A stretch of 64,000 bases of DNA. Source: Escherichia coli. Lineage in GTDB: Bacteria; Pseudomonadota; Gammaproteobacteria; Enterobacterales; Enterobacteriaceae. Under the pieces are notes generated by a model. The model saw nothing but the letters and a program-made list of their open reading frames with translations. It ran no database searches and had not been told where the DNA came from. The position numbers and the translations under genes are program-made. Location: NCBI RefSeq assembly GCF_001677475.2, contig NZ_CP015229.1; one strand, written 5' to 3'. This document shows positions 29,014 through 64,000 of this stretch, one piece after another. Within the stretch, counting starts at the first letter, position 1. Every line of letters begins with the position of its first letter.

Positions 29014-29040
29014 TGTATTGATTCACTTGAAGTACGAAAA
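29014..29040 (+). repeat. Prophage left terminal transposase-binding site (L1-like)
   Basis: Begins with 5'-TG; sequence matches the recalled Mu attL terminus. Confidence 0.75.
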
Positions 29041-29352
29041 AAACCGGGAGGACATTGGATTATTCGGGATTTGGCGGGATTAGATTTAGTGGGGCTTGCA
29101 AGCCTGTAGGACAGATTTTAGCCGTTACATCTTGAAACGCGAAAGATTGTTGGAAACAGCTTTTGATTCATTAAAGACACGAAAAGCAATTACTTCACGC
29201 ATCATTTCAAGTACAGCTTCAAAAATGCTTCAAAAACGGTAACAACCAGGCTTTCGGCAAGTGATGTGTGTCAAAAACAATCATCACTGTTTGGGTATCT
29301 TACATATGTAATTACCTAGAGTGAAGTTTATGTCTTAGCTATTACCTGGTTG

Positions 29353-29877
29353 TTATACAGCTTTCTTTACATCGTTTTCTCTTACAGGGAAATTATGTTC
29401 TTTGCCTTCATACTGAGACAAAATCTCTCTCACTTTTTCAGGTGGTAATGCCTGAAGAGTTTGCAGGGTTTTCTGTTGATCCACAGTAATCCCTAATGCC
29501 TCTAATGCCTTATCTTTACTGACAATTGTAGGCATAAGTCCTTTAATCCCTGCTACACGAATGATCTCCACAGCTGCGGCCTGCTCATCTGGTGTTAAGA
29601 AGCTCATTGCATAAATTAGCCTCTCATCAACTGTATGGGCGATTGATGTATGCACTGGTTTATCAGAAAGTGAGGCTCCTTTAATGGCCCTACGTGTTTC
29701 TTCTGGCAGACTGTTGATGTGATACTCATAAGCGACACCTTTCCCACCGTGACGCTGACGTTTTACCCAATCTTCCGCCACAGCTTTCCTGGTAATGTTA
29801 GTCGCCAACTTTGGTACACCAGGCATCCCTTCCAGCTCTTTCGCATTAAACCATTCTTTGATTTCAAAAGACATCAT
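29353..29877 (-). CDS. c: Transposable-phage repressor (Mu c / D108 repressor family)
   Basis: 174 aa, divergent from ner-A-B; N-terminal about 60 aa are roughly 50 percent identical to the N-terminus of the adjacent transposase. Confidence 0.8.
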   Translation of the reverse strand: MMSFEIKEWFNAKELEGMPGVPKLATNITRKAVAEDWVKRQRHGGKGVAYEYHINSLPEETRRAIKGASLSDKPVHTSIAHTVDERLIYAMSFLTPDEQAAAVEIIRVAGIKGLMPTIVSKDKALEALGITVDQQKTLQTLQALPPEKVREILSQYEGKEHNFPVRENDVKKAV

Positions 29878-30062
29878 TTAAAATCCTAGCGATTTCAATA
29901 GAGACAAAATAAATTCATATAAAAATCATGCCGTTATATGAAATCATGGTAAATACTTTCAAATCTCTATTGATTTGAAAATGATTCCACACTACATTGC
30001 ACGATATGCCGTGAGCTACTTTATAGCGTAGCTCACGGGGGAATCTGAAAGGATTACATGAA
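29878..30062. promoter_or_regulatory. Early operator/promoter region between divergent c and ner
   Basis: AT-rich 185-bp divergent intergenic region with several inverted repeats (for example TCAAAT..ATTTGA at about 29958-29978). Confidence 0.6.
30009..30038. promoter_or_regulatory. Perfect inverted repeat CCGTGAGCTAC-N8-GTAGCTCACGG; candidate Ner operator
   Basis: 11-bp arms at 30009-30019 and 30028-30038 with AT-rich 8-bp spacer, 25 bp upstream of ner. Confidence 0.5.
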
Positions 30063-30284
30063 ATGCATATGAATAAAAGAACTAACCGCCAAGATTGGCA
30101 CAGAGCTGACATCGTTGCAGAGCTACGAAAACGCAATATGTCACTAGCTGAATTGGGAAGATCTAATCATCTTTCGTCTTCAACATTAAAAAATGCTTTG
30201 GATAAGAGATATCCGAAAGCGGAGAAAATCATTGCAGATGCACTGGGAATGACACCGCAAGATATTTGGCCGTCTCGATACTAG
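30063..30284 (+). CDS. ner: Ner-family DNA-binding protein (early-operon negative regulator)
   Basis: 73 aa; motifs [14 protein letters not shown] and IWPSRY shared with Mu Ner and E. coli Nlp. Confidence 0.85.
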
Positions 30285-30291
30285 GTGCGCT

Positions 30292-32280
30292 ATGAAAGAA
30301 TGGTATACAGCAAAAGAGTTGCTCGGTTTGGCAGGTTTACCAAAGCAAGCCACTAACATTACACGTAAGGCACAAAGAGAAGGCTGGGAGTTCAGGCAGG
30401 TTGCAGGGACTAAAGGTGTATCATTTGAATTCAATATCAAATCATTCCCTGTCGCATTACGTGCTGAAATTCTGTTGCAACAAGGGAGAATTGAAACAAG
30501 CCAGGGGTATTTTGAAATCGCCCGCCCCACGCTGGAAGCCCACGATTACGATCGCGGGGCACTGTGGAGCAAATGGGATAAAGCCAGCGATTCCCAGCGC
30601 AGACTTGCTGAAAAATGGTTGCCTGCAGTTCAGGCCGCAGACGAAATGCTGAACCAGGGGATTTCAACAAAAACGGCTTTTGCGACCGTTGCAGGACATT
30701 ACCAGGTCAGCGCATCCACTTTGCGAGACAAGTATTACCAGGTACAGAAGTTTGCGAAGCCTGACTGGGCGGCTGCACTTGTTGATGGACGTGGTGCATC
30801 TCGTCGCAATGTTCACAAAAGTGAATTTGACGAGGATGCCTGGCAGTTTCTGATTGCAGATTATCTGCGACCGGAAAAACCCGCCTTCCGCAAATGTTAT
30901 GAGCGTCTGGAACTGGCAGCCCGCGAGCATGGCTGGAGTATTCCCTCCCGTGCCACGGCCTTTCGCCGGATTCAGCAACTGGACGAGGCAATGGTTGTTG
31001 CCTGTCGTGAAGGTGAACATGCACTGATGCATCTGATACCGGCACAGCAGCGAACTGTGGAACACCTGGACGCCATGCAGTGGATCAACGGCGACGGTTA
31101 TCTGCATAACGTCTTTGTACGCTGGTTTAACGGTGATGTGATCCGCCCGAAAACATGGTTCTGGCAGGATGTGAAAACCCGAAAAATTCTGGGCTGGCGC
31201 TGCGATGTGAGCGAGAACATTGATTCAATTCGCCTCTCGTTCATGGATGTGGTGACACGCTACGGCATCCCGGAAGATTTTCACATCACCATTGATAACA
31301 CCCGTGGGGCAGCGAATAAATGGCTGACGGGGGGCGCGCCCAATCGTTACCGCTTTAAGGTGAAAGAGGACGATCCAAAGGGACTGTTTTTACTGATGGG
31401 CGCGAAAATGCACTGGACAAGCGTTGTTGCCGGTAAAGGCTGGGGCCAGGCAAAACCTGTTGAACGTGCTTTCGGTGTTGGTGGGCTTGAGGAATACGTT
31501 GATAAGCATCCGGCACTGGCTGGCGCATATACGGGGCCAAATCCGCAGGCAAAACCTGATAACTATGGCGACCGTGCTGTTGATGCAGAGCTGTTTCTGA
31601 AAACCCTTGCTGAAGGTGTGGCGATGTTCAATGCCAGAACAGGCCGTGAAACAGAAATGTGCGGGGGCAAACTCTCGTTTGATGATGTTTTCGAGCGTGA
31701 ATACGCCAGAACGATTGTGCGTAAGCCAACCGAAGAACAAAAACGGATGCTGTTACTGCCTGCCGAAGCGGTGAACGTTTCACGCAAAGGCGAGTTTACG
31801 CTTAAAGTTGGCGGCTCCCTTAAAGGCGCGAAAAACGTTTATTACAACATGGCGTTAATGAATGCAGGCGTGAAAAAAGTTGTGGTCAGGTTTGATCCGC
31901 AGCAGCTACACAGCACAGTTTATTGCTACACCCTGGACGGTCGGTTTATCTGTGAAGCGGAATGTCTGGCACCTGTTGCATTTAATGATGCTGCGGCAGG
32001 CCGTGAATATCGCCGCCGCCAGAAACAACTGAAATCTGCAACTAAAGCAGCCATTAAGGCGCAGAAACAAATGGACGCGCTGGAAGTTGCTGAACTGCTG
32101 CCGCAGATAGCCGAACCAGCAGCACCAGAATCAAGGGTTGTTGGTATTTTCCGGCCTGTGGGTAACACAGTACGGGTTAAATATCGCACCCCCGATGATA
32201 AATACGAACCCGCTCGTGATGAATATCTGAATCAGTCACTGGATATTCTGGAACAGAAAAGACGTAAAAAAGCCATTTAA
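30292..32280 (+). CDS. A: DDE transposase (MuA family)
   Basis: 662 aa; Mu-transposase-like sequence throughout; N-terminal domain shared with the repressor. Confidence 0.93.
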
Positions 32281-32318
32281 TTAACGTTTAAACAAAATTT
32301 AATTACGAGGTTATTTAG

Positions 32319-62863: not shown

Positions 62864-62887
62864 CGATCGATACAATCGTATCGATCG
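62864..62887. promoter_or_regulatory. GATC-containing inverted repeat upstream of com/mom; candidate Dam-methylation-sensitive operator
   Basis: CGATCGATAC-AATC-GTATCGATCG; two GATC sites at 62865-62868 and 62883-62886, about 75-100 bp upstream of com. Confidence 0.5.
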
Positions 62888-62961
62888 TCAGTTTGCATCA
62901 TCTGTGATTAAATACCCTGGCCCTCAGGGCTATCGTATCTGGTTAATACACAGGTGGGATC

Positions 62962-63147
62962 ATGGATGCTGTTCGTTGTAAAAACTGCAATAAATTGCTG
63001 TTTAAAGGAAGTTTTAAGCATATAGAAATCAAATGCCCTCGTTGTAAACGTTACATTGTCATGTCGAGTGCCCGGGAGCATCCCACGGAGCTGTATTGTG
63101 GGAAAAGAGAAGAAATCACGCATCCTTACAAAACCCTGCGTTATTGA
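62962..63147 (+). CDS. com: Com zinc-finger translational activator of mom
   Basis: 61 aa; CKNC...CPRC...C..H zinc-finger pattern as in Mu Com; overlaps the mom start. Confidence 0.8.
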
Positions 63148-63793
63148 GTATGAAGGCCGTATTGTCGGCTATGGTTCAAGGGAACTGCGCGTTGAAACCA
63201 TATCCTGCTGGCTGGCCCGCACAATCATTCAGACAAAGCACTATTCCCGCCGTTTTGTGAATAACTCCTGGTTGCATCTGGGGGTATTCAGCGGACGTGA
63301 TCTGGTTGGCGTTCTCCAGTGGGGATACGCCCTTAATCCCAACTCAGGGCGTCGGGTCGTGCTGGAAACGGATAACCGGGGCTATATGGAACTGAACCGC
63401 ATGTGGTTACACGACGACATGCCCCGCAACTCTGAATCACGGGCTATCAGCTACGCACTGAAAACCATCAGGTTACTGTATCCATCAGTGGAGTGGGTTC
63501 AGTCCTTTGCAGACGAACGCTGCGGACGTGCAGGTGTTGTGTATCAGGCATCTAATTTTGATTTTATTGGTAGCCATGAAAGCACGTTCTACGAGCTGGA
63601 CGGCGAGTGGTATCACGAGATAACGATGAACGCGATTAAGCGTGGAGGACAACGAGGCGAGTATTTGCGGGCTAATAAGGAGCGGGCGGTGGTACACAAA
63701 TTTAATCAGTATCGCTACATCAGATTCCTGAACAAGCGCGCAAAAAAGCGACTAAATACTAAGCTATTCAGGATTCAGCCATACCCGAAGTGA
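63098..63793 (+). CDS. mom: Mom DNA modification protein
   Basis: 231 aa if initiated at GTG 63098 (Mu Mom length) with GGAG 7 nt upstream; the track ORF starts at TTG 63056; overlaps com. Confidence 0.8.
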
Positions 63794-63815
63794 TCCCACG
63801 TAATGAATAAAAAAG

Positions 63816-63839
63816 CAGCGGCCAATGCCGCTGTTTTAT
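63816..63839 (+). terminator. Rho-independent terminator after mom
   Basis: CAGCGGC-CAAT-GCCGCTG hairpin followed by TTTTAT. Confidence 0.6.
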
Positions 63840-63915
63840 CTTGAATAACTTCCATATGCGCGCTTCTAACTTATCTTGAAAGAATTCCATATCTATCTTG
63901 AATAATTTTGCGCGC
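63836..63915. repeat. Three direct repeats of TATCTTGAA(T/A)(A/G)A with associated TTCCATAT and GCGCGC motifs
   Basis: Repeat copies start at 63837, 63872 and 63894; a degenerate copy (TATCTTCAAG) at 63936. Confidence 0.5.
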
Positions 63916-64000
63916 TTTATATACCGCTCGATGAGTATCTTCAAGCTCGATATTCCCATCGTAAACATCTGAGTAGACAAGATCGCCGGTGTGATCTGTA

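Follow-up and report, generated by a model that had tools for sequence, protein, structure and literature searches.

In an Escherichia coli assembly, a Mu-like prophage region joins a D108-type left end in the chromosome to a variant right end in a P1-like plasmid gene

The 64,000-nt stretch of Escherichia coli contig NZ_CP015229.1 (assembly GCF_001677475.2) analyzed here, referred to as the window, holds a Mu/D108-like transposable prophage region from position 29014 to position 63919. A first-pass annotation of the sequence alone had described it as a single prophage inserted in the core genome, with a Mu left terminus at 29014, a GCGAT flank, and either a right end located past the window, with extra DNA in between, or a degenerate one. 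The features of the region are given below; comparison sequences are labeled L, and Mu1 and Mu2 denote the chromosomal D108-type prophage and the plasmid-borne variant-type prophage, respectively.

28883 to 29013, plus strand: 5' part (~43 codons) of a 176-amino-acid (aa) HExxH toxin-like gene in a vgrG/Rhs island, cut by the prophage (from the translation)
29009 to 29013: GCGAT, left copy of the 5-bp target duplication of the chromosomal D108-type prophage (from the empty site in L042)
29014 to 29185, plus strand: D108-type left end (attL), starting 5'-TG, with MuA-binding sites L1 to L3
29014 to 33932, plus strand: stretch certainly from Mu1, contiguous with the chromosome in L040 at 100% identity
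29353 to 29877, minus strand: c repressor of the D108 immunity type (98.3% aa identity to D108 c, 30% to Mu c; Pfam HTH_Tnp_Mu_1)
30063 to 30284, plus strand: ner (100% aa identity to D108 Ner)
30292 to 32280, plus strand: transposase A of the MuA type, 662 aa (97.6% identity to D108 A, 91.7% to MuA)
32319 to 33278, plus strand: transposition ATPase B (76.8% identity to MuB and D108 B; Pfam AAA_22 and Phage-MuB_C)
33271 to 63836, plus strand: backbone shared by both module types, kil through mom (92 to 97% identity to prophages of either type)
62962 to 63147, plus strand: com (Pfam Zn_ribbon_Com in identical contigs)
63098 to 63793, plus strand: mom, 231 aa from a GTG start (Pfam Mom)
63816 to 63837, plus strand: terminator-like hairpin 3' of mom, the last element common to both lineages
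63837 to 63919, plus strand: variant-module right end (attR'), with three TATCTTGAAWRA repeats (63837, 63872, and 63894) and the terminus ...TTTTGCGCGCTTTA
63920 to 63923: TATA, right copy of the 4-bp target duplication of the plasmid-borne prophage (from the intact target in P1 and CP099272.1)
63920 to 64000, minus strand: P1-like pmgC, codons ~69 to 95, reading into the prophage end (from the translation; PHROG PmgC-like, residues 1 to 95 of 183)

The left terminus lies where it was first placed. The sequence from 29014 reads TGTATTGATTCACTTGAAGTACGAAAA..., beginning TGTATTGATTCACTTGAAG; its first 57 nt are those of Mu, and 99 of its first 100 nt are those of D108. A consensus scan located the MuA-binding sites L1 (29024 to 29040, 17/17), L2 (29129 to 29145, 15/17), and L3 (29169 to 29185, 16/17) at +11, +116, and +156 from the terminus, which are the offsets of Mu. 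In a near-isogenic relative with an empty site (L042, GCA_019142085.1; 99.98% identity over 8.6 kb), the match to the window stops at 29013, and the uninterrupted site reads ...ACAGCGAT/GACCCCAAACGGGG (continuing GACCCC), where the slash marks the junction. In relatives, the intact 176-aa toxin-like gene is followed by a 118-aa gene, vgrG, dcrB, and rhs. None of this downstream DNA is found within the window, and the second (right) GCGAT copy likewise lies outside it, after a canonical right end in L072 to L075. Positions 1 to 29013 are E. coli chromosome, with a best identity of only 97.3% among 5,426 complete E. coli genomes and 99.6 to 100% identity to several draft assemblies. The host probably belongs to a divergent E. 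coli lineage for which RefSeq holds no complete genome.

Pfam and PHROG matches of the window open reading frames (ORFs), together with the RefSeq annotation of close relatives, confirm the Mu gene order through com and mom reported earlier: c, ner, A, B, kil, gam, gemA, mor, lysis, terminase, portal, head, sheath, tube, tape measure, baseplate, two tail-fiber sets, com, and mom. Transposase A contains the Pfam domains HTH_Tnp_Mu_1/2, DDE_2, and Mu-transpos_C. No ORF for a gin invertase or sign of an invertible G segment was found between the last tail gene, which ends at 62839, and com, which starts at 62962, a gap of ~120 bp. The place of gin and the G segment is taken by two consecutive tail-fiber sets (58473 to 62839), the first consisting of a 331-aa protein and a 188-aa assembly protein and the second of a 763-aa protein and a 196-aa DUF4376 protein. 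Conservation within the backbone is lowest here (~80 to 89% identity with gaps). The public gene index has no record of the exact 763-aa tail-fiber and 196-aa DUF4376 proteins, despite the presence of clone-mates there, which suggests that short-read contigs break in this region.

To locate the right end, positions 63400 to 64000 were searched against complete E. coli genomes and phages. Mu-like prophages match the window to 63919 to 63921, and from 63920 on the match is P1 pmgC. Eight insertion sites agree with the window at 93.5 to 100% identity, several of them at 100% from mom on, and diverge after 63919 to 63922. Among the sites sharing this end are nrfB, fliH, yhfX, and vgrG, whose four insertions were aligned, and two further chromosomal sites, found via contigs carrying the identical Mom protein. 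In the four-insertion alignment, the last polymorphic column is 63887, the columns from ~63890 to 63919 are all invariant (...ATCTTGAATAATTTTGCGCGCTTTA), and the sequences are unrelated thereafter. Because independent insertions are invariant up to 63919 and unrelated beyond it, this position is a true transposon end and not decayed sequence. The right end, which had been taken to lie outside the window, is therefore present and sharply defined, and instead of being degenerate, 63837 to 63919 corresponds to the intact, conserved end of a different Mu-family transposition module.

This variant right end finishes in ...GCTTTA at 63919, instead of the Mu-style ...CA. Its repeats are confined to 63837 to 63905 within the 64 kb (0.03 expected), and their inverted counterpart lies in variant left ends, which read TATGAC...ATTCAAGATA. 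No MuA-consensus site scoring at least 14/17 occurs in the last 260 bp, while Mu and the prophage of STEC383 do show R1, R2, and R3. The first-pass annotation saw neither a canonical Mu right terminus nor an inverted left end in the 207 bp after mom, and both are absent throughout the window with up to 4 mismatches allowed. Neither the canonical terminus, nor R1 to R3, nor the matching 5-bp duplication of an intact Mu/D108 unit occurs on the right side, and the 5-nt flanks differ, GCGAT on the left versus TATAC on the right, and come from different replicons. A scan of one genome per GTDB species gave no match to the variant right end.

Insertion in the core genome holds for the left flank only, since the right flank, 63920 to 64000, is pmgC of a P1-like plasmid. 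These 81 bp are 97.5% identical to P1 and 100% identical to the IncY plasmid CP099272.1 (97.7 kb) and to L016 and L018 to L022, and they match 468 PLSDB plasmids. The chimeric pmgC ORF has 110 aa and stops near 63871, and the intact target in P1 and CP099272.1 reads ...CAGCGGG/TATACCGC. L016 (GCA_018683295.1) equals the window at 100% over 62618 to 64000 and continues for 9.9 kb beyond the junction with truncated pmgC (residues 1 to 95 of 183), immI (icd/ant), kilA, and repL. These P1-like genes are 96% identical to P1 and, over 1,581 bp, 100% identical to CP099272.1. The extra prophage DNA anticipated beyond the window did not materialize: this contiguous downstream sequence contains no Mu end and no end followed by GCGAT. 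At least nine contigs, drawn from several projects, carry the attR'/P1 junction without a single base change. No complete PLSDB plasmid contains this junction or closely matches the variant module; part of the variant transposase gene, A', is matched at ~81% by two plasmids. Nothing relevant was found in the literature on P1-like plasmids carrying Mu-like phages.

In the place of P1 simABC, L016 (1640 to 4222) has no DNA similarity to P1 and encodes a 344-aa SH3-like protein and a 158-aa YfjT-like protein; the intact CP099272.1 has the same layout. The composite plasmid with the variant prophage (L016, L019, L063, and others) would be ~130 kb with a disrupted pmgC, and it is probably too large and damaged for P1-type packaging. 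It persists as a plasmid, as the same insertion occurs in assemblies and runs from several projects.

The two ends of the region thus represent two transposition modules. The Mu1 module has TG...CA ends, MuA sites, and D108-like c, ner, and A, and it sits in the vgrG-island toxin gene with a GCGAT duplication. The Mu2 module has TA...TA ends, ATTCAAGATA repeats, and its own c', ner', B', and ~695-aa A'; its insertion site is pmgC of a P1-like IncY phage-plasmid, where the duplication is TATA. As an example of the variant type, the left end in STEC346 (TATGACTAGGTAATTTATTCAAGATA...) is filled with these repeats in inverted orientation and is accompanied by a different repressor and ner, a 695-aa transposase, and a different B. 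The transposase of the window and that of the variant module share 24.6% identity over 394 aa. The variant left end (TATGAC...), c', ner', A', and B' are all absent from the window and adjoin the other half of pmgC in L063.

Between these modules lies a common backbone. D108-type prophages match the whole window element except for its last 83 bp, variant-type prophages match from 33271 to 63919, and sliding identity against reference prophages shows the backbone to be 93 to 97% identical to both module types. An identical Kil protein (33275 to 33499) is found downstream of either module in many genomes, and an identical Mom protein adjoins either right-end type, the two types parting directly after 63836. 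The modules are paired in every complete genome checked, D108-type left with canonical right or variant left with variant right. STEC383 carries D108-type attL and canonical attR in potE with a CCGGA duplication, while STEC346 and VL40 carry variant attL and attR'. In at least 10 genomes with a D108-type left module, the mom-proximal sequence leaves the window at 63836. Mu-family phages thus swap whole transposition modules (both ends with c, ner, A, and B) on a common backbone.

The variant module is characterized by 5'-TA...TA-3' termini (TATGAC...GCGCGCTTTA) and a 4-bp duplication, versus TG...CA and 5 bp for Mu. All four cases have a 4-bp duplication: ATTC in STEC346, which was checked against the empty yhfX site, CAGG in STEC388, TTCA in VL40 vgrG, and TATA in P1 pmgC. 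No description of TA termini with a 4-bp duplication was found in the literature examined. Variant ends were mapped at the following positions.

Window: 63837 to 63923
L008: 2847 and 38090
L024 and L002 (STEC388, NZ_CP041425.1, a genome with four mom-containing places): left end at 2,852,469, plus strand; right end at 1,939,241, minus strand
L059: 6204
L063: ~5245, minus strand

All four parental junctions were recovered from related public assemblies. The chromosome/attL junction is found at 100% identity in L040 (GCA_031299685.2; 13,500 nt), L007, and L043. At the same chromosomal site, the canonical attR was reached via a lineage-specific VgrG allele: L072 to L075 read ...GTGCGCCGCTTCA/GCGAT/GACCCCAAACGGGG and then the rest of the toxin gene (in short form ...GCCGCTTCA/GCGAT/GACCCC), and their DNA downstream of attR is 99.97% identical to the empty-site relative. 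The partner right end followed by GCGAT that the first-pass annotation predicted does exist, in these related assemblies and outside the window. A search for the chromosomal right junction via the predicted 127-aa truncated ORF (two alleles) did not find it, and the neighboring 118-aa gene was too common to be of use. On the plasmid side, L063 (GCA_043014985.2) holds the junction of P1 with the variant left end, attL', and reads ...CACATTCAGCGGGTATA/TATGACCAAGTAAATTATTCAAGATA... (that is, ...CAGCGGGTATA/TATGACC...) with the duplication TATA, followed by c', ner', A' (698 aa), B', and kil. The attR'/TATA/P1 junction is 100% identical in the window, L016, and L018 to L022. Both prophages were therefore ordinary simple insertions with matched ends, and in the window half of one is linked to the terminus of the second.

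The position of this join was bounded from lineage-specific contigs and not from outside references. The plasmid copy in L063, which has a different left module, differs from the window at 38 positions within 33271 to 33932, the last of them at 33932. The chromosome-linked L040 and the plasmid-linked L063 both stop at 33961, 29 nt past this last difference. At the right fork, the plasmid-linked L019 and the chromosome-linked L073 and L075 all stop at 63753, and the copies differ at 63760, 63796, and 63800, where the window has the plasmid-copy (Mu2) alleles. The window alleles are those of Mu1 up to 33932 and those of Mu2 from 63760, which places the exchange within 33933 to 63759, and left of 62738 if L074 is from the same clone. 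Logan unitigs (k = 31) stop at 33303 and 63807, which are the module borders offset by ~k, and GCA_031299685.2 holds both window junctions on separate short-read contigs. The lineage thus carries two copies of the backbone, and the contig breaks fit a near-identical repeat from ~33.93 to 63.75 kb. The co-resident copies are ~94% identical over their first 660 bp (33271 to 33932, window versus L063). This diverged edge, together with the apparent near-identity beyond 33.93 kb, would suggest an earlier gene conversion or exchange between the copies.

Two complete Mu-family prophages thus inserted independently in this lineage, the D108-type Mu1 in the chromosome and the variant-type Mu2 in a P1-like plasmid, and they share the ~30-kb backbone outside their modules. 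We propose that one homologous (RecA-type) crossover within this backbone connected the Mu1 left part with the Mu2 right end. Such an event would integrate the plasmid into the chromosome between two reciprocal hybrid prophages, much as an Hfr (high frequency of recombination) strain arises. Parental elements with matched ends on two replicons and long homology between them, as a recombination cointegrate calls for, were both found. The modules, junctions, duplications, and exchange interval are read from the contigs themselves; that the crossover took place in a cell rather than in an assembler is what we infer, and we consider the chances of such an in-cell fusion to be about even. We lean slightly toward it over an assembly artifact, because homology of this length between replicons should recombine often, because the apparent near-identity of the central ~30 kb beside edges of 94% identity would itself point to past exchange, and because a contig running through a repeat into unique DNA usually needs bridging reads. 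The fuller picture, of a fused P1-type phage-plasmid produced by crossover of two heteroimmune prophages with non-interchangeable transposition machineries, leaving "locked" hybrids and a partner of undescribed TA/4-bp chemistry, is put forward more tentatively. The 34.9-kb hybrid is predicted to be immobile, with no transposition or replication as a unit, because the D108-type transposase should not recognize the foreign right end.

In STEC388, a single variant prophage has its two ends separated by 913 kb and inverted relative to each other, each adjoining half of fliH. This layout looks like a large inversion by recombination between Mu-like prophages and offers a precedent for rearrangement between such elements.

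Several points weigh against a fusion in the cell. The window and the short-read contigs are silent on which left end links to which right end, and separate replicons and a cointegrate yield the same set of junctions and the same short-read graph. An apparently near-identical repeat of ~30 kb is a typical place for an assembler mis-join. The P1-like DNA in the window amounts to only 81 bp, the four junctions come from several assemblies and not all from one, and what would select for stable integration of a P1-like plasmid is not obvious.

The strongest alternative is that each prophage is intact on its own replicon and that the path from chromosome through Mu to P1 reflects a mis-join or arbitrary threading through the ~30-kb repeat. 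All independent short-read assemblies of the lineage break at the repeat borders and none crosses, both matched-end junctions occur in the lineage, no public contig of at least 50 kb carries the chimeric pmgC ORF, and the free plasmid form would be expected to be the majority state. On the other hand, an unbridged repeat is usually left open by conservative long-read or hybrid assemblers and not traversed into unique sequence, Illumina contigs on both sides agree with the window at every base, and recombination over such homology should be frequent, so that integrated molecules are expected in any culture. We regard a mis-join as a serious contender, if somewhat short of an even chance.

The remaining explanations fare far worse. 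That of the first-pass annotation, one Mu/D108-like chromosomal prophage with a degenerate right end or one located beyond the window after extra DNA, was right about the type of element, the left end, and the GCGAT flank, and it accommodates the lack of a canonical right end in the window and a last 207 bp unlike Mu attR. An element that runs past the window or has a degenerate end is nevertheless excluded, and the structure is not a single insertion with its target duplication, given that the 83 bp before 63919 form a conserved end of functional type found at eight sites, that P1 pmgC and 9.9 kb of P1-like genes with no Mu end follow, and that the true partner end with GCGAT adjoins the rest of the toxin gene in related assemblies. 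Mu-mediated replicon fusion, in which replicative transposition of the chromosomal prophage into the P1-like plasmid leaves two identical copies, draws on the fact that a Mu-type element bridging two replicons without a matching duplication is the textbook signature of a cointegrate. Yet the end at P1 is not of the D108/Mu type, the encoded transposase has no sites there, and other assemblies show this P1 junction in a simple insertion that has a variant left end and a TATA duplication of its own, which makes this scenario hardly credible. A replicative-transposition cointegrate was ruled out by the mismatched end type at the P1 junction. A single natural mosaic phage with a D108-type left and a variant right end, transposed as such, is equally hard to credit: modules have been exchanged on this backbone in nature, but the only transposase that the region encodes lacks sites at the right end, the two flanks, derived from different replicons, are unlike in sequence and in the length of the duplication, and every complete genome examined has matched ends.

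Compared with the Muvirus members D108 and Mu, the left 4.5 kb of the window has 91.9% DNA identity to D108, the c, ner, and A products are 98 to 100% identical at the protein level, and the L1 to L3 sites, kil, gam, gemA, mor, com, mom, and overall Mu gene order are the same. In contrast, the late region gives four short (~150- to 330-bp) BLASTn matches of 69 to 72% identity up to ~41.9 kb, and no BLASTn match to Mu or D108 from ~41.9 to 62.9 kb. The window also differs from both phages in lacking gin and the G segment, in its two unrelated tail-fiber sets, in B (77%), and in a right end that is not the Mu/D108 attR. D108-type prophages on the same backbone (STEC383, UMNF18, L029, and L074) are closer, with 98 to 100% identity in the left module and ~95% in the backbone; however, they end in ...GTGCGCCGCTTCA, and the window departs from them after 63836. 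The variant prophages of STEC346, STEC388, and VL40 have right ends 93 to 100% identical to the last 83 bp of the element, but the window lacks the left end, repressor, transposase, and B of their module.

Outside E. coli, Yersinia phage vB_YpM_5 has the same style of terminus (TATGA...AGGTAA / ...TTTTGCGCGCTTTA), though its internal repeats are TTTGATAC and not ATTCAAGATA. The transposase of vB_YpM_5 and vB_YpM_6 is 84.7% identical to that of STEC346, and the variant module is thus present in isolated, viable phages; the paper on the vB_YpM phages contains no analysis of the ends or the transposase. Sp18-like phages have a transposase 74% identical to the variant one. Of 10 Sp18-like Mu-like phages in closed genomes of clonal complex 119 (CC119) Shiga toxin-producing E. 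coli (STEC), 6 reside in prophages, Stx phages among them, or in other mobile elements (PMC10132054). In the present case, a P1-like phage-plasmid is the carrier and a morphogenesis gene the target.

Two further layouts of variant-type DNA were observed. In E. coli RM9088 (L001), a remnant beside nrfB, bordered by IS21- and IS66-family elements, retains only the 3' part of mom and the variant right end and matches the window at 100%; L014 and L015 hold full prophages at the same site. In L030 (GCA_030346535.1; 5681 to 18033), the variant left module ends just past kil and faces a second, inverted Mu-like early region with a 691-aa transposase, B, ner, and c, a layout suggestive of two transposable prophages that are nested or rearranged.

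Hfr-type plasmid integration and chromosome rearrangement through recombination between prophages are both well established. In the former, one crossover between homologous elements on a plasmid and the chromosome yields a cointegrate with two hybrid flanking copies. The window resembles one such hybrid copy, with the difference that the homology would be a ~30-kb phage backbone carried by heteroimmune transposable phages. The parts are all of known kinds, namely, a D108-like early region, a Mu-family backbone, a P1-like phage-plasmid, and repeat recombination. What is new is their combination: a Mu-family phage in P1-like pmgC, a heteroimmune co-resident sharing its backbone, and a hybrid joint.

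Prophage-calling software would score this region as a single, intact Mu-like prophage of 34.9 kb, while its ends belong to different elements and replicons, and the 34.9-kb stretch should not be counted as a mobile unit. The variant module, with its TA termini and 4-bp duplication in all four cases, is a side finding in its own right. A P1-like phage-plasmid can harbor a Mu-family phage; the insertion inactivates a morphogenesis gene and enlarges the plasmid to ~130 kb, above what a P1 head should hold. Long homology between plasmid and chromosomal prophages is a ready route to replicon fusion. If the linkage in the window is real, it would represent a natural, Hfr-like integration of a phage-plasmid through transposable phages, achieved without transposition.

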